Virus record (IMG/VR): IMGVR_UViG_3300030339_000091
DNA: 42,785 nucleotides
Direction: 5' to 3' (one strand)
DNA from: a virus
Under the pieces are notes generated by a model. That model was not told the origin of the DNA, made no database searches, and was given only the letters and a program-made list of their open reading frames with translations. Position numbers and translations under genes: made by a program. Below, in pieces: positions 4,574-34,439 of the stretch (position 1 is the first letter of the stretch; the number at the start of each line of letters is the position of its first letter).

Positions 4574-5995
4574 ATGAATGTAACGTCAAGTTTATCCGGT
4601 AATTATCATGTGTGCGACGTGCCAGCATTGGTTATTGAGAAAAATAACGAGCTTACAACACTAACGCTGACTTTATCGCAAGGTGAGGACCAATGGACAT
4701 CGGAAGTTTTGACATATGTAAGTGGATTAATCACTTATACCGATTTGTGTGCCAATATAATATTTAATTTGAATTGGAGGGATAAACCAAAAGGAGCTAA
4801 TTACAATTTCAACGTGAAATTGACAGAGGGTGAAGTAATTGTGAATCTACCATTTGTGGCCTACTTTCCAGAAACATTTATTCAAGCTCCTGAAAATAAC
4901 GGACTTTATTTTCAAAAATCGGTACCTGATATCATTATGGAACGTAATGATATATACACTTCAGCTATTTTTGAATTGAAAAAAGGTACTGAGGTAATTT
5001 TGACAGAAAGTTATTTATATGGCGCGGATCACAAACTTCGGATTAGAAACATTTATGAAATCATTGAAAAGTATTTCAACTCTGATTCTGAAATTTCAGA
5101 ACCGGGTACCACAAATATTTCAACCGGACTGTCTTTAGATTTCACGATCAACATTATTACACCTGGCTCGCACATAATTGCTTTCAAAGTGCTTAAATGC
5201 GATGCTGATATAACCGCCGATGCTGCCGAATGGACGGCTGCCAATTTTTTGACCCGTTGCTATCGCGAGAAGCGCACGGCCAAAAGTCGAAACGAATATC
5301 TATCATTCCTAATGAAAAATAGTTACTCAACGGTAACTATCAACTACAAAGTTATATACATACTTGATGGCGTACGTACTGAAATAATCGGCACGCTCGG
5401 AACTATTGCACAACAGGTGGGAGATAACAATGTGGCGACTTTCAATGCTTCCATTCACCGCATTATGGTTGCTGCCGGACTGGTAAATTTCACCGAAGTG
5501 ATTCAATATGACATTTGGCTAACCGGTACAGGATTACTCACCAATGTGTACACATTCCTTGTCGATAACACTCCTTATAGAAATTCAAAATCCTTTGTTT
5601 TTGTGAATTGCTTTGGCGTGTTGGAAACTTGGACAGCGACAGGCCTTGCCGAAACAAAAAAGGCAATGGAGTATAACCTTGGGAATATCGAAAACCACTA
5701 CCGAAAAATTACACAGGACTTTTACGCCGAAAAGCAGTGTAATAGTGGCTATTTGAGCGAAGCGGAAATGGATTGGATTGACGATTTTATAAAAAGCTTC
5801 AGTGTAATCAATTACTCACAGGACATTACGCAAAATGAAGAAATAACCCTGATTTCGGTAGACAAAACCGATACAGAAGCCAATGTTTTACAGGCATTTT
5901 TATTCAATTACCGAAAAGCAAAGAATTTGCACCTGGCGTTTATGAATGCTGCTAAAAACATATCAGATTATACACTAGACCAAACATTTGATTGA
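4574..5995 (+). CDS. Hypothetical protein (473 aa), possibly virion-associated
   Basis: Long ORF at the head of the morphogenesis block. The ATG at 4574 is preferred over the TTG at 4532. No recognisable motif. Confidence 0.5.
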   Translation: MNVTSSLSGNYHVCDVPALVIEKNNELTTLTLTLSQGEDQWTSEVLTYVSGLITYTDLCANIIFNLNWRDKPKGANYNFNVKLTEGEVIVNLPFVAYFPETFIQAPENNGLYFQKSVPDIIMERNDIYTSAIFELKKGTEVILTESYLYGADHKLRIRNIYEIIEKYFNSDSEISEPGTTNISTGLSLDFTINIITPGSHIIAFKVLKCDADITADAAEWTAANFLTRCYREKRTAKSRNEYLSFLMKNSYSTVTINYKVIYILDGVRTEIIGTLGTIAQQVGDNNVATFNASIHRIMVAAGLVNFTEVIQYDIWLTGTGLLTNVYTFLVDNTPYRNSKSFVFVNCFGVLETWTATGLAETKKAMEYNLGNIENHYRKITQDFYAEKQCNSGYLSEAEMDWIDDFIKSFSVINYSQDITQNEEITLISVDKTDTEANVLQAFLFNYRKAKNLHLAFMNAAKNISDYTLDQTFD

Positions 5996-7598: not shown

Positions 7599-8432
7599 AT
7601 GATAATAACAACCATTGCGGATTTTATAAAATCCATACCAACAGCCACCGGAACCAAGTGGGATGCAATAGAATCATTTGTTACATCGGCAGATTTTGAA
7701 ATCAAAACCATGTTGATTGGTTCTGATCTCTACAATTACATTGCAGCTCTGACTGGCACAACGGCATTGAAAACTACACTGCAAAATCTGATCGCTTTTA
7801 CAGCGTATTCAAAAGCAATTCCGTTTGTTGACTTGATACAGACACCAACCGGTTTTGCGGTAGTGAATAATGCTAATCATGCTCCGGCAAGCAAAGAACG
7901 TGTGGAACGCTTGTTGAAGTGGTGTGATAAAGAAATTGATAAAAATACCGACTTGCTAATTATGCAAGTAGTTGACACGGCACAGGCATTGACAGAATGG
8001 AAGAAATTTAAACGCTTCAATAATTTTACAAATTGTCTATTCCTTACCGGAATTGATTTTGCCGGTTATGCAAAAACGGAAAACGGCAGCCGTGCCGATT
8101 TTCTGAAAGTAAAAGGAACTTTACTTGCCATTCAGAAAAATGATTTATCGGAAGCATTGAGCGCAAACTATGTGGCTGAACTGGTAACGCAAAATAGAAA
8201 TAACACGCTCACAGAAAAGAACTTATTTGTGGTTGAGAGTTGCAAATTAGTTATGGCAAAATATGTAGAAAAAGAGGAGCATGAGGCTGAGGAACTACTC
8301 ACTCAAATAGTGGTGATGATGGAAAAAACGCTTACCGATTATCCAGCCTATTCCGCCAGTGCTGAGTATGCACTTAAAAATATGCCAACATATCAGAACA
8401 AAGCAACTGATTCAACTTTCTTTTTTAATTGA
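7599..8432 (+). CDS. Hypothetical virion-module protein (277 aa)
   Basis: Tightly packed ORF between the putative portal and the tail genes. Confidence 0.5.
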   Translation: MIITTIADFIKSIPTATGTKWDAIESFVTSADFEIKTMLIGSDLYNYIAALTGTTALKTTLQNLIAFTAYSKAIPFVDLIQTPTGFAVVNNANHAPASKERVERLLKWCDKEIDKNTDLLIMQVVDTAQALTEWKKFKRFNNFTNCLFLTGIDFAGYAKTENGSRADFLKVKGTLLAIQKNDLSEALSANYVAELVTQNRNNTLTEKNLFVVESCKLVMAKYVEKEEHEAEELLTQIVVMMEKTLTDYPAYSASAEYALKNMPTYQNKATDSTFFFN

Positions 8433-22132: not shown

Positions 22133-22582
22133 CTATCCGGCGAGTGCATCCTTCGCGGGTGCATTGGCGTTTTTTACACGTTCAAGCTCGATCTCAAGCG
22201 AGTGTGCTTTTTCCATCCATTCAACTTTTTCTTTCAGCAGTCCGGCTATCTCTACTTGCTGCTCATACATTATCTTTTTTAGCTCCTCTTTTTCTTCAGG
22301 GGGAGCATAAATAGTTAGTGGAGTAGCTACCACATTCGAATGCTTTGTCGGTTCGCTGTTTCCCTTTTTAGGGTATATAAACAACTCATTCGGTTCAATG
22401 CCGAAGAATATGCAAATCTTCATCAAGTTCTCTGCTGTGGGGTTAACCCCATACAAAGTACTCCTCGAAACGCCAATCTTGGCAGCAACGCTGTCTTGTG
22501 TTTCGCCTTTGTTTAATTTCACATACTGTGAAACTAAATGATTGACTTTGTTTCTGTTATACTCAATATTATTTACATTCAT
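22133..22582 (-). CDS. cI-like repressor (XRE-family HTH with coiled-coil C-terminus)
   Basis: HTH QDSVAAKIGVSRSTLYGVNPTAENLMKICIFFGIEPNELF. It is divergent from the cro-like gene. The ATG at 22582 was verified by hand. Confidence 0.8.
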   Translation of the reverse strand: MNVNNIEYNRNKVNHLVSQYVKLNKGETQDSVAAKIGVSRSTLYGVNPTAENLMKICIFFGIEPNELFIYPKKGNSEPTKHSNVVATPLTIYAPPEEKEELKKIMYEQQVEIAGLLKEKVEWMEKAHSLEIELERVKNANAPAKDALAG

Positions 22583-27376: not shown

Positions 27377-27426
27377 ACCAATTTTGATTTTTCTGAACTG
27401 ATCCTTAATTCTACATTTCCCCATTC

Positions 27427-28665
27427 ATGGCTAAGCATAATAAATTTACCGAAACCAAAGTTCCCGCCAGTTCCGGCGACAGAGTGAAAATTGTCGAAGA
27501 TTTTCTGACGGCACATTATGAAATTAAAATCAATATTTTCGACCCTAGCAAAACCATTATTGTTGCCAAAAATCCAGAATTATACGACAAAGAGCCTAGT
27601 GAGATGCTTATCTCGCTACACATGGAGCGCGAAAACATACGTGGGTGCGATACCATTCTCCGGAAGATTCTCAAGTCCGGCTATCATATCACTACTTTCA
27701 ATCCCGTAACTGAATATCTCAACTTACTTGAGGGAGCTTGGAAAGGCAAAAGCCACATAGAAAAGTTTTGCAGCTGCATTGTAGCGCGCGACTTTGGCGA
27801 CAAACCCGAAGGATATTACCAGGAACGTTTTGTGCGCATTCTCAAAAAATGGATGGTTGCCACCATTGCCAACGGACTAGGGATTAATGCCAACGATGCG
27901 CTTATCGGCTTTATCAACGCAAAAGAAGGAATCGGAAAAACCCGCATGATGCGATTTCTGGTACCACCGGCACTGAAAGCTTATTACGTGCAATCAAGCA
28001 AAGACGATCGGAAGTTTGACATGACAACGGCCTTTACGCAAAACTTCATTGTGGGGTTTGATGAACTTTACGGAATCACCAAAAATAATTCGGAAGAATT
28101 AAAACAGGTTCTTTCCGCACTTGAATACAGGCTATCTAAACGTGATACCAACGAAGTTCCCAGAATTGGCAGTGGAGCATTCACCACCAATAAAAACAAG
28201 GAGCTAGGCGGCTTTATTCACCCCTCAATGGGTTACCGCCGATGGGCATGCGTGGAAACTGAAGCAATAGACTGGAAAAAATACAATGCCGAGGTAGATA
28301 TTTTTCAAATGTGGGCTGAAGCAATGGTACTTTTCAAAAATTCCGATTTCGATTATGTGTGGAACGAGGACGATTTCAATGAATTCAAAGAGTACAATAC
28401 CCGCTATATCGTTGAAACAAACGCCAACAAGCTTGTAAAAGAATACTACAGAGTTCCGGAAGAAGACGAAGAATCAACACACATGCAGCCGCTTGAAATA
28501 CTTCAGGAACTTCGCAGAGCTCGCAAACTCAACAACTCCAACGGTGTGAATGTATCGGAGGTAACAATCGGGATGGCACTCTCAGCAATGGGCTTTGAGC
28601 ATAAAATGAAAAACGTTGGCGGAAATCGACGCTATGGATATCAGGTTATACAACTATTTGAATAA
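27427..28665 (+). CDS. VirE/VapE-like P-loop NTPase (primase-helicase-associated replication protein)
   Basis: Walker A AKEGIGKTRMMRFL. Walker B IVGFDEL. The 412-aa size and replication-module context fit. Confidence 0.6.
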   Translation: MAKHNKFTETKVPASSGDRVKIVEDFLTAHYEIKINIFDPSKTIIVAKNPELYDKEPSEMLISLHMERENIRGCDTILRKILKSGYHITTFNPVTEYLNLLEGAWKGKSHIEKFCSCIVARDFGDKPEGYYQERFVRILKKWMVATIANGLGINANDALIGFINAKEGIGKTRMMRFLVPPALKAYYVQSSKDDRKFDMTTAFTQNFIVGFDELYGITKNNSEELKQVLSALEYRLSKRDTNEVPRIGSGAFTTNKNKELGGFIHPSMGYRRWACVETEAIDWKKYNAEVDIFQMWAEAMVLFKNSDFDYVWNEDDFNEFKEYNTRYIVETNANKLVKEYYRVPEEDEESTHMQPLEILQELRRARKLNNSNGVNVSEVTIGMALSAMGFEHKMKNVGGNRRYGYQVIQLFE

Positions 28666-28688
28666 AAACAACTTAACAATTTAGCATT

Positions 28689-28988
28689 ATGAAATACAAT
28701 GAAATTGAATACAACGAAAAAGGATTAGTAAAATGCGAAGTTTGCGGACTGTATTTTCAACGGGTATCATGCCACGTAAACAAAGCACATGGAATGTCAG
28801 CCAGCGAGTACAAGGCAAAATTCGGGTTTAAGCAAGGAGAAGGTTTGTGTAGCGAGAAAAGTCGCCAAAAAACAAGCAAACAATCAAGTAGCCGATATAG
28901 AATGAATAAAGCTAGCTTGTTTATTGAAATGAGCAAAAAAACTAGATTTCCTAAAGGAATTTGTGGAAGAGTTTTTAAATGCGCCTAA
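28689..28988 (+). CDS. Ros/MucR-family zinc-finger transcriptional regulator
   Basis: CEVCGLYFQRVSCHVNKAHGMSASEYKAKFGF matches the MucR pattern C..C...........H....HG.s..eY..k.G. Confidence 0.6.
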   Translation: MKYNEIEYNEKGLVKCEVCGLYFQRVSCHVNKAHGMSASEYKAKFGFKQGEGLCSEKSRQKTSKQSSSRYRMNKASLFIEMSKKTRFPKGICGRVFKCA

Positions 28989-29072
28989 CGATAGATGTAT
29001 GTGTATTGCCCGTGTTTTCGGGCTGCACAACACTGTCAAATTATAATAAGGGCTACACATACATTAGTGTTA
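28986..29072 (+). repeat. attC-like imperfect palindrome E1 (87 nt)
   Basis: The 5' end is GCC-TAAC-GATAG-ATGTATGTGTA-TT-GCCC. The 3' end is GGGC-TACACATACAT-TAGT-GTTA. GCCTAAC equals the canonical integron inverse core RYYYAAC. The TAA is the stop codon of the MucR-like gene. Confidence 0.6.
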
Positions 29073-29110
29073 TGTTTAGTTTATTCTTTCTTTAATCAAA
29101 ATTCAAAAAT

Positions 29111-29347
29111 ATGGCAACAATAGCAATGATTCCAGCCGATAAACAAGGCAACAAAATTTTTATTAAAGATTTACGAGTTGACGAAAAACAACGAACATTC
29201 GTAAAATATAAATCAACTTACAATGATATGCCATTTATGGAAGTCGAATTGTACGGAGTAGATAATGGTCAAAACTGCGCTATTTGCGGAGACGATGGCA
29301 CAATCTTATATCGTTTCTCAACCGCATGGCTTTCTTCTTTAAATTAA
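29111..29347 (+). CDS. Cassette 1 ORF, hypothetical (78 aa)
   Basis: ATG ORF bounded by E1 and E2. Confidence 0.55.
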   Translation: MATIAMIPADKQGNKIFIKDLRVDEKQRTFVKYKSTYNDMPFMEVELYGVDNGQNCAICGDDGTILYRFSTAWLSSLN

Positions 29348-29350
29348 ACA

Positions 29351-29437
29351 TAACGACCGAGGCTATCGGCTTCATGGGCGTTCACAATCGCACACACTTT
29401 CGCAATGCTAATTAATGATGCCGATAGGCGTATGTTA
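29351..29437 (+). repeat. attC-like imperfect palindrome E2 (87 nt)
   Basis: TAAC-GACCGAGG-CTATCGGC ... GCCGATAG-GCGTAT-GTTA. Confidence 0.6.
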
Positions 29438-29490
29438 CCTGCAGGTGTATCTTATATTATTAAAAATCAATCAACTAATAAAATACTAAT

Positions 29491-29991
29491 ATGAAAACAA
29501 TTGAAGTATCAGACGAAATGTATTCCGCATTAATGGAAATTTCAAATGAATTAAACACGCAAAGCCATAGAGGAACGGCAATGCCTTACTTTTTTCAAGT
29601 TCAAACAGAACATGAAATTGCAGTACCCGAAGGAAATGGAACTGAAGCATGGTATCAGGACGGTGGAACTATTGAAACTGAAAAAGAAATAGTTGATACC
29701 ATATTTGATTATAAGTGCGGAAAAATGACAAAGAAAAAGATTAAAGAATTAGATTCTTATGACAAAGAAGAAATACTCGAAGACGCTGGGTGGAGAAAGG
29801 TTTATTATGATTATGAGAAAAGACTTGAAAACGCATTCTTCACTGAAAAAGCATGTGAAGATCATATAAAAATGAACAAACACAACCTTAATAAGCCACA
29901 TAGTTATTTAAACCACGCTTTTCGTAATCCTGAAATGGAATTAGTGTTAACTTTCCTATGTGAACTAAGTGGTGGAAAAATGCACAGATAA
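29491..29991 (+). CDS. Cassette 2 ORF, hypothetical (166 aa)
   Basis: ATG ORF bounded by E2 and E3. Confidence 0.6.
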   Translation: MKTIEVSDEMYSALMEISNELNTQSHRGTAMPYFFQVQTEHEIAVPEGNGTEAWYQDGGTIETEKEIVDTIFDYKCGKMTKKKIKELDSYDKEEILEDAGWRKVYYDYEKRLENAFFTEKACEDHIKMNKHNLNKPHSYLNHAFRNPEMELVLTFLCELSGGKMHR

Positions 29992-30023
29992 TCGAACCTG
30001 CACGGACTTTTTACACTTGCAGG

Positions 30024-30107
30024 TAACGTGTGGCTATGCCTGCACGGCTTGCACACATTGTCGGAGCGTAAATTACTTGTCAGCCGTGTATGGCATAGGT
30101 GATGTTA
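30024..30107 (+). repeat. attC-like imperfect palindrome E3 (84 nt)
   Basis: TAAC-GTGTGG-CTATGCC-TG-CACGGCT ... AGCCGTG-TAT-GGCATAG-GTGAT-GTTA. Confidence 0.6.
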
Positions 30108-30166
30108 GCAGCATGGCGGTTCTTAATTAAAAATTTCTCAAATATTAATATATAAAAATTACAAAA

Positions 30167-30514
30167 ATGAAAAACTTAGAAATCAACATTCAAGACGAAT
30201 GTGCAAAAATTCATCACCAATATGGTATGAGCGAAATGGCAAACTATCGAATCGAACAGCTTTTCGATAAAAAATTAAAAGAAAAAATGCGATGGATTCT
30301 AGTTGACGAAGAAGAGCCTATATGTGTATTGGAAGACGAAGGAATTAATTATTCAAAATACTTGGAAATAAAAGTAAAAGGCTACGAGCATCCGTTCATC
30401 GGTTATTATGTAAAAGCTAATGACGACCAATTCTTTGATTTTATTCATAAATCAGTTGACGAAGGAATAAAACAAGAAGACGTTACTCACTTTCGTTTTG
30501 TTGTAGAAGCCTAA
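30167..30514 (+). CDS. Cassette 3 ORF, hypothetical (115 aa)
   Basis: ATG ORF bounded by E3 and E4. Confidence 0.6.
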   Translation: MKNLEINIQDECAKIHHQYGMSEMANYRIEQLFDKKLKEKMRWILVDEEEPICVLEDEGINYSKYLEIKVKGYEHPFIGYYVKANDDQFFDFIHKSVDEGIKQEDVTHFRFVVEA

Positions 30515-30551
30515 TAGTACGCAGGCGGTTGATTTTTCTTCCGCTTGCTGC

Positions 30552-30681
30552 TAACGTATCGACAGTATGCTTTAGTAGCACATCTGCGGGCTACATACTG
30601 CCGAAAAACAAATTCCGCTAATGCGGGCAATTAACTTTCAATTAACCACAAAAGCGGGCTATTAAGCATACTGTAGTGTTA
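30552..30681 (+). repeat. attC-like imperfect palindrome E4 (130 nt)
   Basis: TAAC-GTATCGA-CAGTATGCTT ... AAGCATACTG-TAGT-GTTA, with a long variable centre. Confidence 0.6.
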
Positions 30682-30702
30682 GTAGCCGTTTATTCTTTCT
30701 TT

Positions 30703-31344
30703 ATGAATCCACAAGACATTGACATAATCGTAGGCTGTGAAGAATCACAAGCAATCACAATCGAATTTAGAAAACTCGGCTTTAATGCTTTTAGCTGCGA
30801 CTTACAAGAATGTTCGGGCGGACACCCCGAATGGCATTTACAAATGGACGTTTTAGAAGCTATTAAACTAAAGGAATGGAAACTTGGTATATTTCATCCC
30901 ACGTGTACGTTTTTAAGCCGTGCCGGAGCTCGTTGGCTTTATCAAAAAGGCGAAATAAACAAAGAACGGTACGAAAAGGGATTAAAAGCAAAACAGTTTT
31001 TTATGGAGCTTTATAATAGCGATATTGATTATTTGCTACTTGAAAACCCAACGCCTTTAAAAATTTACGATTTGCCAAAACCATCGCAATGGGTTGAACC
31101 GTGGCAGTTCGGACATCCTTTTTCAAAGAAAACATTATTTTGGCTCAAAGGATTACCGCCTTTAATGTCAACAAAAATAATGAGTGAATACAAACCTTTT
31201 CTGCCTTCAAATACTGGCGGTGCAAAAAGAGGTCAAAAAGCAACGTTTAGAAACATTAGTCAGAAGGATTCGAGTAAAACATTTTCGGGTATTGCACAAG
31301 CTATCGCAACGCAATACGGCTCTTTTCTTTTAAATGGCTACTAA
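30703..31344 (+). CDS. Cassette 4 ORF: C5-cytosine-methyltransferase-like protein
   Basis: IIVGCEESQA...FSCDL...IFHPTCTFLSRAG...LLLENP resembles MTase motifs I, IV (P-C) and VI (ENV). The ATG at 30703 is preferred over the GTG at 30676. The stop codon lies inside the next TAAC. Confidence 0.5.
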   Translation: MNPQDIDIIVGCEESQAITIEFRKLGFNAFSCDLQECSGGHPEWHLQMDVLEAIKLKEWKLGIFHPTCTFLSRAGARWLYQKGEINKERYEKGLKAKQFFMELYNSDIDYLLLENPTPLKIYDLPKPSQWVEPWQFGHPFSKKTLFWLKGLPPLMSTKIMSEYKPFLPSNTGGAKRGQKATFRNISQKDSSKTFSGIAQAIATQYGSFLLNGY

Positions 31345-31425
31345 CGTATTGCAGCTATGGTTTAGTGCCGGACTTAACGCACAAAAGGTCGGACGAGAGC
31401 AAATAGAGTATTTTTTTGTGCGTGG
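31342..31425 (+). repeat. Degenerate attC-like element E5
   Basis: Starts TAACG at 31342. A second TAACG lies at 31375. A 10-bp stem ACGCACAAAA/TTTTGTGCGT is present. The 3' GTTA is replaced by GTGG. Confidence 0.35.
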
Positions 31426-31443
31426 ATTTCTTAATTTTAAAAT

Positions 31444-32184
31444 ATGGATAAACAAACAATCGCAGTATGGTTTTCTTGTGGGGCTGCCAGTGCAGTAGCT
31501 GCAATGAAAACACTTGAAAAGTATGGACAAACCCACAATATACTTATCGTGAATAATCCAGTTATCGAAGAACATGAGGATAATAGACGTTTTTTAAAGG
31601 ACGTTGAAGAATGGTTACAGCATCCAATTATTGAAGCTAAAAACAAAGATTTTCCTAACTGCTCGATAGTTGAAGTTTTCGACAAACGAAAATACATGAG
31701 TGGCAATTTAGGCGCGCCCTGTACAATGCTTTTGAAAAAAGAAGCCCGTTATCAATTTGAACTAACGCATAAAATTGATTTTCATGTACTCGGATTTACA
31801 ATCGACGAATGGGAAAGGCAAAAGAACTTCAATGAGAGTGAAAGAGGTAACACAATTCCAGTACTTATAAGCGAACTCATAACTAAAGAAGATTGCTTTA
31901 AAATTCTTCGGAAAGCTAAAATAAAACTACCAGCTATTTACAGCATGGAATTTCCAAACGCTAATTGTATTGGCTGCGTAAAATCACAAAGCCCAACTTA
32001 TTGGAATTTAGTGAGGCGTGAGTTTCCTGATATTTTTGAGAAGCGAGCAGAACAAAGCAGACGTATAGGCTGCACACTGGTAAAGAGAAAAGGTAAACGA
32101 ATCTTTTTGGACCAACTAAAACCAACTGATAAAGGCGGTAAAATTAAAAGCTGGGAGTGTGGGATTTTTTGCGACACTAAATAA
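31444..32184 (+). CDS. PP-loop / PAPS-reductase-superfamily protein
   Basis: The N-terminal IAVWFSCGAASAVAA is a variant of the SGG.DS PP-loop. The C-terminal Cys pair (NCIGC) is typical of PAPS-reductase-like proteins. Confidence 0.5.
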   Translation: MDKQTIAVWFSCGAASAVAAMKTLEKYGQTHNILIVNNPVIEEHEDNRRFLKDVEEWLQHPIIEAKNKDFPNCSIVEVFDKRKYMSGNLGAPCTMLLKKEARYQFELTHKIDFHVLGFTIDEWERQKNFNESERGNTIPVLISELITKEDCFKILRKAKIKLPAIYSMEFPNANCIGCVKSQSPTYWNLVRREFPDIFEKRAEQSRRIGCTLVKRKGKRIFLDQLKPTDKGGKIKSWECGIFCDTK

Positions 32185-32286
32185 TAACGGCTTGAAAAGC
32201 CGAGAGCGTGGATAAAAAATACGGACACAATGAGCAACACTTTAATACGAGCGCAAAAACAAGGCATTAACCATAGGTGTGTGTTA
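32185..32286 (+). repeat. Degenerate attC-like element E6
   Basis: Starts TAACG immediately after the stop codon and ends GTGTGTGTTA. Its internal pairing is poor. Confidence 0.3.
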
Positions 32287-32339
32287 GCAGCATACCGCTT
32301 GTCTTTCGTATCAAAAAACTTTTTGCGGTTGCTGCTAAC
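32283..32339. repeat. ORF-less hairpin with cassette-type ends (GTTAGCAGCATACCGC - 26 nt - GCGGTTGCTGCTAAC)
   Basis: Arms of 15-16 nt read directly. The ends are near-identical to those flanking the cassette 3 ORF. Confidence 0.7.
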
Positions 32340-32391
32340 AATATTATATGTTTAATTCATATTTTGCAAACATTCGCAAAACTCTAAAATT

Positions 32392-32601
32392 ATGTCACTT
32401 ACACACAAACAAAAGATAAATCTACGCAAACTAGATAGAACTACTAAAATTGAAATTATGCAAGAGTTCGCAGATGAAATTATGACTATCGAACAATATA
32501 GTGAAGTGACAAAAATTCCACCACGAACAATTTACGCTAAATTTCACACGCCACAAATAGGTGGATTTGAATTGTGCGGGCATAAATTTACTTTTATATA
32601 A
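32392..32601 (+). CDS. Excisionase-like (HTH_17/AlpA-type) small DNA-binding protein
   Basis: TIEQYSEVTKIPPRTIYAKFHTPQIGGFELCGHKF resembles the Xis pattern ...s.rTiy......ip..kiGg...f. Confidence 0.45.
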   Translation: MSLTHKQKINLRKLDRTTKIEIMQEFADEIMTIEQYSEVTKIPPRTIYAKFHTPQIGGFELCGHKFTFI

Positions 32602-32625
32602 ATATCAACTTAACAACAAATTATC

Positions 32626-32952
32626 ATGAATGAAATTAAAACAAAAGAACAGCTTTGCAAAGAGCAACTTACTCAGCAACCTAGTTTTATAGATTCATTA
32701 AGCTTTACCGAAGGTTTTATGTCTGCTTTAGAATTTGGTAATCCGTGGATAGATTTAGATACATCGCTCCCTGAAGAAAATGAATGCCTTCTAGATAATT
32801 CAATAGAAGATTTAAAACGAACAGTAAAAGTTCTTGCAATGACCGAAACAGGATCAGTTATTGATTCTACCAGAGTTTATTGCATTGATGGAAAATGGGA
32901 TTGGTGTCCAACAATTTCCGATGAGGAATTTATAAAATGGAGGTTATTATGA
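32626..32952 (+). CDS. Hypothetical protein (108 aa)
   Basis: ATG ORF. Confidence 0.55.
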   Translation: MNEIKTKEQLCKEQLTQQPSFIDSLSFTEGFMSALEFGNPWIDLDTSLPEENECLLDNSIEDLKRTVKVLAMTETGSVIDSTRVYCIDGKWDWCPTISDEEFIKWRLL

Positions 32953-33191
32953 AAGCAACAATCTACAGTACCAAAAAAATTGTAATGATCAAACCCTCTC
33001 CATTATCCGACGGAGTACCGGCACGGGTATGGGAAGGAGAAACCGAAAGCGGAATTAAAATTCATTGCTACATAACACGGGTAGCCATTGATATCGACGA
33101 ACCCAGAGCCGATGAGTTTTCTGCCGAATTAGAAGAATGTAGAGCGCCATCGGTTGAAGTTAGTAATTTGCCTTTAAGCTTGATATTATGA
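32949..33191 (+). CDS. Hypothetical protein (80 aa)
   Basis: The ATG at 32949 follows GGAGG and overlaps the upstream stop as ATGA. Confidence 0.5.
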   Translation: MKATIYSTKKIVMIKPSPLSDGVPARVWEGETESGIKIHCYITRVAIDIDEPRADEFSAELEECRAPSVEVSNLPLSLIL

Positions 33192-33424
33192 TAACCGGAC
33201 TTAACGGGTGCAGTTGTCACCCTTTCACAAGTTGGGAAGAATGCGAAAAAGCCCACCGACAAAAATTTAAAGTCGATGATCCTGTAAAAAATCGATGTAC
33301 CGAACGTGAAGGAACAATCGATAAAATTGAGAAACAATCCGGATATGTTTCGGTAAAATATGGACCAATACCGCACGATATTGAAGGCGAACATGTAGCA
33401 CAATTAATTAGAATAGAAAAATGA
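33188..33424 (+). CDS. Hypothetical protein (78 aa)
   Basis: ATGA overlap with the upstream gene. Confidence 0.5.
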   Translation: MITGLNGCSCHPFTSWEECEKAHRQKFKVDDPVKNRCTEREGTIDKIEKQSGYVSVKYGPIPHDIEGEHVAQLIRIEK

Positions 33425-33930
33425 AAAACTCCATTTTAGAATTATTCAAAGCATACGAGCGCGAAACCGAATGGGACGGCAATGCTATTCCCGAATCAAT
33501 GTGTAAAGCTTTAGCAAATGATATCGTAAAGTTGTTTCAGAATTACAAACCTAAACGGGTAGGAATCATTGGCGGTGGATTTCAAGGTTTCATTTGTGGA
33601 ATAGATGAGGCCGCAAGTATAGTAGGTTATCATATTGCACGCGAAAATTTAATTTCGGGACCTAGACTTCCTAATCAAGATGAATGGCCTGAACGAGAAG
33701 GAACAGCATTCGAAGATCAACTAAAAAAATTAGATTCGGAAGCGTTTCGCAGAGAATACCTTTTTGATTTCAATAACGAGCAAATTGTAAATAAATTTGA
33801 AGCATTAAATAAAGAAGCCAAAGAAGCCGCTTTAGCTTTTGAAAGTCTCGGAGAAAAAATGATTGATCATAGTTATCAAGAAAATAAAAAGCATAAAGGT
33901 CACGAACGACCCTATAAATATCACCGATAA
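33421..33930 (+). CDS. Hypothetical protein (169 aa)
   Basis: ATGA overlap with the upstream gene. Confidence 0.55.
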   Translation: MKNSILELFKAYERETEWDGNAIPESMCKALANDIVKLFQNYKPKRVGIIGGGFQGFICGIDEAASIVGYHIARENLISGPRLPNQDEWPEREGTAFEDQLKKLDSEAFRREYLFDFNNEQIVNKFEALNKEAKEAALAFESLGEKMIDHSYQENKKHKGHERPYKYHR

Positions 33931-33980
33931 TCCCATTGAATTTTTAATCAACTAACTAACCCACTAATATTGCAATTAAT

Positions 33981-34439
33981 ATGAGCGATTACAACGTTTA
34001 TCTGACAGTTCCCGAATACTTAGAGCAATGGATAACCCACACATTCGGAAATCCGGTACAACTCATTAAAGATTCTCCCGAAATGAGAACCCTAAATGAA
34101 TTGACCGTGAAACTGCCGTGTGATAAAATGCCTGATACCGGAGAAGGTTCCAATATCACAATACCAATTCCATATTTCAAGGGGAAAGACCCTGCCGTTT
34201 ACAACCACCTTTACGACAGTGGTAAAAATGCTATGGTTGAAAGTTTTTCTACTCTTTTCGATAAAAATCTATTTACCGAGATCACCGATTTGAAAAACGT
34301 TAATCTGAAACGCGCAACCTTAATTTATGCTTACATGGAAAAACACGGCATTGATGAAAAACATTGGGACACTGTGGCGCAACGTTGGCATCGACTCAAC
34401 CAAAAGTACGGCAAGAAAAAAAACATAAAAATCGCTTAA
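33981..34439 (+). CDS. Hypothetical protein (152 aa)
   Basis: ATG ORF. Confidence 0.55.
   Translation: MSDYNVYLTVPEYLEQWITHTFGNPVQLIKDSPEMRTLNELTVKLPCDKMPDTGEGSNITIPIPYFKGKDPAVYNHLYDSGKNAMVESFSTLFDKNLFTEITDLKNVNLKRATLIYAYMEKHGIDEKHWDTVAQRWHRLNQKYGKKKNIKIA

Follow-up and report, generated by a model that had tools for sequence, protein, structure and literature searches.

We describe five hairpins, E1 to E5, which are most readily read as folded single-strand recombination sites of an integron-like cassette array carried by a phage. They lie in IMG/VR virus record IMGVR_UViG_3300030339_000091, a stretch of 42,785 nucleotides (nt) that we call the window and that, by its gene content, is the genome of a temperate phage of the Bacteroidota type. 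On the 3' side of a MucR/Ros-like gene, a row of small open reading frames (ORFs) runs along the + strand, each followed by an imperfect hairpin bounded by TAAC and GTTA; E5 is split into two distant halves. We give this reading a probability of about 0.68. It is based on the structure of the sites, its conservation throughout a family of relatives, the covariation of the arms, the bias towards one strand, the homology breakpoints at the cores and the link to a recombinase gene.

A preliminary description of the region had pointed out that in E1-E4 the unpaired spacer next to the core is longer on the 5' arm, and that TAAC is always followed by G and GTTA always preceded by T. Both features are present in 4/4 elements (Table 1). 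We scanned the window for TAAC...GTTA pairs enclosing an uninterrupted stem of 7 bp or more, each arm being allowed a spacer of 0-10 nt. Shuffled versions of the window gave about 1.4 such hairpins each, and the window itself gave 5, four of them in consecutive intergenic gaps. The fifth of these scan hits, at 22444-22559 inside the repressor gene, was set aside as probably due to chance. Since the inner stems are perfect helices of 7-11 bp, the net difference in length beside the core cannot be aligned away. The spacers of E4 are 7/4 as written and 6/3 when an extra A-T pair is counted, and the single extra base of E3 is cancelled by the TG/TAT internal loop further in. E1 had also been credited with a TT bulge on the same arm. 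This bulge appears only if GCCC pairs with a distal GGGC, and the minimum-energy fold takes a local hairpin instead. The TAA of the E1 core is the stop codon of the MucR/Ros-like gene.

The split element E5 has the design of E1-E4, with spacers of 9/6, arms that resemble those of E3 and a PAPS-reductase-like ORF between its halves. This ORF could have been placed there by insertion at a secondary site in the loop. TAACG recurs at 31376 and 32185, with a similar ...CGAGAGC stretch after each. Downstream of E5, a 57-nt module contains no ORF, and its ends are almost the same as those bounding the cassette of the 115-aa ORF (30104-30555). Judged from these ends and from the arms of E3 and E5, the two look like paralogous units, one empty and one filled.

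The same design is found next to genes for a tyrosine recombinase. One contig (L008/L029; other viral contigs are likewise numbered with L) carries a row of seven hairpins around a homologue of the 166-aa ORF of the window, with spacers of 5/1, 5/1, 5/2, 5/1, 5/2, 6/4 and 10/6. The row stops 56 nt upstream of the gene for a 267-aa Xer-like tyrosine recombinase, after which comes an SSB gene. This recombinase has 247 relatives in IMG/VR, and 80 of these viral loci were scanned with settings that required neither the G, nor the T, nor any direction of asymmetry. Upstream of the Xer-like gene (349 kb), 110 hairpins have the G, the T and the longer 5' arm, against four with the G and the T and the reversed asymmetry; each of the other base combinations at these positions occurs in 1-4 hairpins. 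Downstream of the gene (510 kb), three hairpins have a longer 5' arm and three a longer 3' arm, and 813 kb around host-type Xer genes (40-46% identity) of Bacteroidota genomes, taken as a control, contain one such hairpin. The tie-breaking of the scan leans to the opposite direction (47 negative and 23 positive in controls), so that the ratio of 110 to 4 is conservative. Thus, in the relatives the extra bases are not distributed randomly between the arms. In 103 of the 106 distinct elements the excess on the 5' arm is 2 (19 elements), 3 (50) or 4 bases (34), typical spacers of the family being 5 nt on the 5' side and 1-2 nt on the 3' side. Some recombinase-linked sites have spacers of 9-10/5-6 with ...TGCAG / GTGCT, which matches E5 and resembles E3.

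Further information about the site was obtained from a structural alignment of 60 recombinase-linked elements, none of them from the window. The five outer pairs (U-A, A-U, A-U, C-G and G:U) are invariant in 60/60, so the G and the T reported for the window are fixed in the aligned relatives as well. Compensatory double changes are found in all ten inner pairs, in 17-34 of the 60 sequences for nine of them and in 2 for the tenth. Between the outer and the inner helix, five columns of the 5' arm face one column of the 3' arm. As the inner pairs covary while the outer pairs stay fixed, it is structure that is conserved here, not sequence. A covariance model built from the 60 Xer-linked sites (R1) was then run on the window and recognised E4 with 40.4 bits (E-value 9e-6); its next full-length matches, all on the + strand, are E1 (16.2 bits), E2 (14.6), E3 (14.1) and 32179-32292 (12.1). 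One cassette, present in L050 (about 7940-7950) and L063 (about 5970-5980), has CAAC/GTTG in place of TAAC/GTTA. Judging by this sequence, the part of the core that never varies may be AAC/GTT alone, in line with integrons.

Homology between arrays breaks at the cores. A hairpin that is 97% identical between L029 and L069 has unrelated DNA to the left of its TAAC and to the right of its GTTA. A cassette of 1027 bp, 93% identical, adjoins the attI-like site described below in L061 and is internal in L032; homology extends from the TAAC 5' of the hairpin to the next TAAC, to the right of which L061 has the conserved site and L032 another hairpin. In the pair L050/L063 homology likewise breaks after AAC. 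Moreover, whole cassettes turn over between phages whose recombinases are more than 90% identical. Contigs from peat metagenomes that share single modules with the window diverge from it at 28986, 30556 (in two runs), 31353, 32271-2 and 32339, and the contig diverging at 32339 runs on into attI-like sequence.

A second footprint is found in the flanks. The two that border a given hairpin show no more complementarity to each other than random sequences (3.6 of 12 bases). In the relatives, the flank that follows GTTA pairs instead with the one that precedes the following TAAC, on the far side of the ORF, with a mean of 7.0/12 bases and a bimodal distribution whose mode is at 9-10. The corresponding pairs in the window are 29073-83/29340-50, 29438-49/30012-23, 30108-19/30541-51 and 30682-91/31331-40.

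The arrays also end at a conserved border. In 50/70 loci, with recombinases sharing 66-95% identity, the homologous stretch opens with a TAAC that lies 56 or 55 nt before the recombinase ATG. To the right of this TAAC the sequence TAYTATATGTA... is conserved, and to the left the DNA is unrelated. The window array ends on a similar motif, the sole TAAC-N2-6-TATATRT in the window, 56 nt before the ATG at 32392. The gene that starts there encodes a 69-aa protein unrelated to the recombinase, for which we found no relatives in viral contigs and no Pfam family.

The catalytic signature motifs of tyrosine recombinases are visible in the sequence of the 267-aa protein. Its alignment with structures of XerA and XerC-like proteins, which are its closest matches, covers the full length. 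Against the model TIGR02249 it scores 139.6 bits (cut-off 265), with the match in two pieces, and it stays below all curated cut-offs. IntI, the integron integrase, carries a specific insert essential for its function (PMC8138268). Aligned to VchIntIA (2a3v), the Xer-like protein has 37 residues where IntI has 85, and it thus lacks the IntI-specific insert (I2 helix region). In L027 the Xer-like gene is at 1468-2271 on the minus strand. The SSB gene lies directly after it in L027 (1037-1441, minus strand) and in L029 (downstream of 8801). SSB affects attC folding in integrons.

The stems themselves indicate which strand folds. Read on the + strand, the isolated stem mismatches of the recombinase-linked elements are 5'G:3'T in 61 cases, T:G in 2 and of the A:C type in 2, and the G:T often stands immediately after the first stem. 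On the opposite strand the G:T wobbles become A:C mismatches and the bulge passes to the other arm. Because stem mismatches are 63 G:T against 2 A:C, we take the coding strand to be the folding strand. Comparison of the two single-stranded DNA folds, which the preliminary description had proposed as a check, agrees with this: under DNA energy parameters, stability favours the + strand fold in 91/106 elements, by a mean of 1.8 kcal/mol, and in 4/4 window elements when their flanks are included (3/4 when cut to exact coordinates). The 5' spacer is, in addition, G/T-rich. The two strands are unequal, and the better hairpin is that of the coding (+) strand. The conserved G:T at the base of the elements, first noted as a mismatch in duplex DNA, is thus one of several features favouring the coding strand.

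These features could also be explained without strand selection. The hairpins would still be recombination sites, with the extra bases acting as spacing, kink or overlap region and pointing in one direction through common ancestry. The bulge lies directly beside AAC, where the central region of a tyrosine recombinase site lies, the 61 to 2 polarity of 5'G:3'T points to positions fixed by inheritance and not to free selection for pairing, and the enzyme has no IntI helix for reading extrahelical bases. However, the bulge has kept its side through a full turnover of the stem sequences, and one and the same strand is favoured by the asymmetry, by the G:T wobbles and by the richness of the 5' spacer in G and T. 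We consider this explanation unlikely, though it deserves attention.

A different possibility is that the hairpins act in RNA only, in processing, stability or termination between small genes. All sites are on the coding strand just after stop codons, 63 G:T against 2 A:C is the classical signature of a transcribed strand, and E4 folds as RNA far better than its shuffles (z-score -5.4). The preliminary description had argued that RNA structures have no reason to be one-sided, which we judge too strong; the RNase III sites of phage T7 have asymmetric internal loops. On the other hand, a function in RNA does not account for homology breaks exactly at TAAC and GTTA, for the complementarity across ORFs, for the strict location upstream of the recombinase gene with a conserved TAAC border, or for the turnover of whole cassettes between phages with recombinases more than 90% identical. 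Neither a terminator-like site at E1-E4 nor a match in Rfam was found. An exclusive role in RNA is therefore improbable in our opinion, and the hairpins may have a secondary RNA role alongside recombination.

Among known systems, the integron is the closest in organisation. Its attC sites combine cores of the form RYYYAAC/GTTRRRY with 5-6 nt of spacer per arm and, beside the L'' box (6-bp spacing), 2-3 extrahelical bases; their bottom strand is the reactive one (Nivina 2016, PMC5027507). As in integrons, single-ORF cassettes lie between imperfect hairpins with AAC/GTT cores that conserve structure and not sequence, unpaired bases on one side make the strands unequal, and what lies beyond the core is part of the adjacent cassette, with whose own far end it pairs. 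In the relatives, the insertion site adjoins a tyrosine recombinase gene, and a cassette can be found beside this site in one genome and internally in another. Moreover, the order on the reactive strand is the same, that is array, AAC, att site and recombinase gene, this strand being the bottom one in integrons and probably the + strand here.

There are also clear differences. The associated enzyme is a 267-aa Xer-like protein devoid of the IntI insert. In place of extrahelical bases by the L box, on the other arm, there is a bulge of 2-4 nt beside AAC, on the arm that would be cut; a mid-stem G:T wobble takes the place of the bulged bases, and the core helix is closed by the invariant G:T. 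The coding strand folds, unlike the bottom strand of attC. The ORFs point towards the recombinase gene, no arrangement of the Pc type was seen in the arrays, and these are carried by phages. Consequently, the attC-like strand specification proposed in the preliminary description is retained as regards structure-defined sites, systematic asymmetry and unequal strands (110/4; 63/2; 91/106), and departs from attC in the position of the bulge, the strand that folds and the enzyme; the asymmetry itself may be what selects the strand. Compared with characterised attC sites, the extra bases are on the same side as L'' when attC is read on its top strand, and they lie inside the spacer and not by the L box.

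These differences bear on whether the window could contain a fragment of a classical integron, that is a cluster of attC sites lacking an integron integrase (CALIN), with true attC sites served by a bacterial IntI. The AAC/GTT cores, the imperfect hairpins of 84-130 nt and the layout of one ORF plus one site would be expected of it. Phage-borne integrons and CALINs of the IntI/attC kind have been reported in Vibrio, Escherichia coli and Shewanella phages (Qi 2023, PMC9892861). However, more than 100 sites of the same design stand beside an insert-less Xer-like enzyme and not beside IntI, their spacers are asymmetric instead of about 5-6 nt per arm, their folding strand is the coding one and, in one clean example, the L032/L061 unit keeps the hairpin together with the ORF downstream of it. 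We regard a CALIN as very improbable.

In the pdif modules of Acinetobacter plasmids, genes lie between inverted Xer-type sites and are apparently exchangeable (PMC7399989), and duplex modules of this kind, with inverted double-stranded sites and no folding, would agree with the alternation of modules between inverted cores, the involvement of a Xer-family enzyme and the use of both cores as homology breakpoints, yet they can be practically dismissed, given that the arms beside the cores keep complementarity through compensatory changes and G:T wobbles and do not keep their sequence. Since the arms conserve only complementarity, a fold would be recognised rather than a duplex sequence. In contrast to pdif, a conserved duplex of 28 bp, conservation is limited to 5 nt in each core, and the arms show helical covariation. 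Conserved XerC and XerD arms of 11 bp around a centre of 6-8 bp are not seen in these sites, whose arms differ completely from one to another.

Two other phage systems have features in common with the array. In attP(+) of CTX-phi, host XerCD reportedly acts on a folded single-stranded hairpin with a dif-like sequence, and the whole phage genome is integrated once (Val 2005; see PMC3442271). Both cases would involve a Xer-family enzyme without the insert, a hairpin with an unpaired asymmetric central region and replication to finish the exchange. In contrast to CTX-phi, the enzyme is encoded by phages and is associated with many arm-variable sites in a cassette array. The cassettes of T4-type phages known as PeSL are said to consist of early promoters and stem-loops thought to recombine by homology. 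Like them, the present cassettes are small novel ORFs, each with a flanking stem-loop, in hyperplastic phage regions where modules are shuffled; unlike them, they have invariant cores, precise breakpoints and an associated dedicated recombinase. No promoter enrichment was found at the window hairpins, another difference from PeSL.

Several observations weigh against recombination at folded single-strand sites as the explanation of E1-E5. The asymmetry of E1-E3 is +1 or +2, below the norm of the family, and against R1 these three elements reach only 14-16 bits (E-values of 0.25-0.6), which is individually weak. A G:U-rich hairpin on the coding strand is also what an RNA structure would show. 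The L050/L063 hairpin is much more diverged than the ORF behind it. Breaks are found at both TAAC and GTTA, which leaves more than one candidate for the crossover point and for the reacting strand; an all-against-all BLAST of the arrays yielded only two unambiguous examples of a cassette shared between different contexts, a number insufficient to place the crossover. The metagenome breakpoints rest on single contigs of low depth, and no peat contig joins across a cassette, a negative that at a depth of 2-6x and with fragmented assemblies says nothing about excision. Finally, the window has no Xer-like recombinase: tblastn with the L027 protein returned only the 407-aa integrase, at 23% identity. 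The window array would then be an orphan that needs its recombinase in trans.

With these points in mind, it is tempting to propose how a cassette would move. The site has four parts: the outer TAAC:GTTA helix closed by the invariant G:T wobble; the bulge of the 5' arm directly after TAAC-G (1-3 extra bases in the window, 2-4 in relatives), where the central region of the tyrosine recombinase would be; the covarying inner stem, often with a second 5'G:3'T wobble; and a variable loop. Once a cassette had been excised as a circle, its outer helix would gain about 10-12 bp, because the bases to the right of GTTA (b) are complementary to those to the left of the next TAAC (b'). The 267-aa Xer-like recombinase, the presumed catalyst, would bind the + strand hairpin and cleave its 5' arm within AAC, in the manner of IntI, which cuts attC at AA|C. 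The unit C-hairpin-GTTA-b-ORF-b'-TAA would be inserted at the site beside the recombinase gene, and the exchange would be completed by replication.

A cut in AAC fits the borders of the arrays in the window and in L008, with a full hairpin on the left and a bare b'-TAAC on the right. It also fits the L032/L061 unit and the paralogy of E3+b and E5+b in the window, and on the + strand the order is array, b'-TAAC, conserved site and recombinase gene. As homology also breaks at GTTA, this scheme requires that the other strand is used from time to time or that hairpins are replaced.

Table 1. Features of the array and its surroundings (positions in the window; spacers given as 5'/3' arm, in nt).
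Feature	Position	Strand	Description
407-aa phage integrase	20621-21844		
VapE-type helicase	27427-28665		array begins downstream
MucR/Ros-like gene	28689..28988	+	left border of array
E1	28986..29072	+	spacers 5/4, 11-bp stem; TAAC GATAG ATGTATGTGTA...TACACATACAT TAGT GTTA
Cargo 1	29073..29350	+	78-aa ORF 29111-29347; inverted ends 29073-29083 / 29340-29350 (15 nt inverted repeat, 93%)
E2	29351..29437	+	spacers 8/6, 8-bp stem; TAAC GACCGAGG CTATCGGC...GCCGATAG GCGTAT GTTA
Cargo 2	29438..30023	+	166-aa ORF 29491-29991, phrog_3205; inverted ends CCTGCAGGTGTA and TACACTTGCAGG (26 nt inverted repeat, 81%)
E3	30024..30107	+	spacers 6/5, 7-bp stem, TG/TAT internal loop, second 7-bp stem; TAAC GTGTGG CTATGCC...GGCATAG GTGAT GTTA
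Cargo 3	30108..30551	+	115-aa ORF 30167-30514; ends GCAGCATGGCGG and CCGCTTGCTGC
E4	30552..30681	+	11-bp stem, 1-nt 5' bulge, second stem with G:T wobble; TAAC GTATCG(A) (A)CAGTATGCTT...AAGCATACTG(T) (T)AGT GTTA
Cargo 4	30682..31340	+	DNA methyltransferase-like ORF 30704-31344 (phrog_757); ends GTAGCCGTTT and AAATGGCTAC
E5, 5' half	31341..31361	+	TAAC GTATTGCAG CTATGGTT; pairs with 32269-32286
PAPS-reductase-like ORF (phrog_424)	31444..32184	+	inside loop of split E5, not between cassette ends
E5, 3' half	32269..32286	+	AACCATAG GTGTGT GTTA
ORF-less module	32283..32339	+	57 nt: GTTA-GCAGCATACCGC-26 nt-GCGGTTGCTGC-TAAC
Array end	32336..32351	+	TAAC (32336-32339) then AATATTATATGT, resembles attI-like motif of Xer loci

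Concerning the cargo, the 166-aa ORF has a homologue (63%) that likewise forms a cassette in L008. Neither this ORF nor the 115-aa ORF is diagnostic of arrays, since most of their homologues are found in closely packed phage gene rows of the ordinary kind, which have no hairpins. Methyltransferase-like cassettes recur in the arrays of L029, L031, L044 and L069. The methyltransferase-like and PAPS-reductase-like proteins of the window may form a DNA-modification or counter-defence pair, and this cargo suggests that the arrays may carry counter-defence functions.

The loops of recombinase-linked hairpins share the A-rich motifs AAGTACAAA and ATTAAATTAAAC, found in L029 (5575-5699 and 6879-7003), L031, L044 and L069. 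Some such loops have an ATG in frame, through GTTA, with the downstream ORF, whose first 20 residues or so would then be encoded by the hairpin. The general rule that the loop supplies the start codon of the next ORF was dropped, as it is true of few relatives only. Promoter boxes of the Bacteroidetes type were sought by eye in the loops, and none was convincing.

Elsewhere the window encodes a repressor, a LuxR-type regulator and a ClpP-like protease with structural genes. DNA of this phage was detected in 24 peat metagenome runs from 2019-2020 (X1-X24), in which 63-100% of the words sampled from the region 28600-32700 are present. Its distribution is accordingly wide, across either the peat habitat or the sampling campaign. 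Five contigs related to the window through the helicase (L001-L005; 59-78% identity) are devoid of every gene between 28689 and 32184 and of any such array, and therefore the block lies in a hypervariable region. Compared with these contigs, the variable stretch is 28665-33980, from the VapE-type helicase to the gene at 33981-34439. The helicase and a gene of the latter type are adjacent in L005, about 1 kb apart in L004, and separated by about 3.3 kb of other genes in L001 and L003. None of L001-L005 offers a filled-versus-empty comparison for the window array, and a distant BLAST with 27400-32200 as query returned, from 50,697 phage records, no more than a methyltransferase match of 115 bp.

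L004 has no array and carries, at 5196-5242, a single short hairpin, TAAC GAAC CTGGCAAT ... ATTGCCAG TTTT GTTA, with the G after TAAC and the T before GTTA but equal spacers of 4/4. A motif ATCAACTTAACAA(C)AAA..AT(C/T)ATG lies directly 5' of start codons and recurs in the group of the window phage (window 28665-28691 and 32600-32628; L004 4525-4550 and 5255-5280). It may be a promoter or leader signal, unrelated to the hairpins.

A full-text literature search returned no description of a Xer-type cassette array in Bacteroidota phages. Our analysis contributes a measurement of the asymmetry, the bias of the wobbles towards one strand, breakpoints mapped to TAAC and a comparison of the geometry with that of integrons. 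The textbook example of recombination guided by the shape of DNA and not by its sequence is the integron, and the IntI insert is held to enable such recognition of shape. We hypothesize, at even odds, that Bacteroidota phages have a second form of integron, independent or ancestral. In it, an insert-less Xer-type enzyme would act on coding-strand hairpins, whose bulge and 5'G:3'T wobbles would mark the strand in place of extrahelical bases and the I2 helix. Such arrays would constitute a gene-exchange network among phages, with orphan arrays served in trans. The two marks, a bulge beside AAC and G:T pairs that turn into A:C on the other strand, are simple and testable.

In summary, if this hypothesis is true, these phages would offer a living example of single-strand recombination arising from Xer/dif chemistry without the domain thought essential for it. 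Its confirmation would mean that single-strand sites can be recognised without the insert, which bears on the evolution of integrons from Xer, and would add a second structure-specific recombination system for engineering. It would also explain a hypervariable phage region as the product of enzyme-driven cassette exchange.

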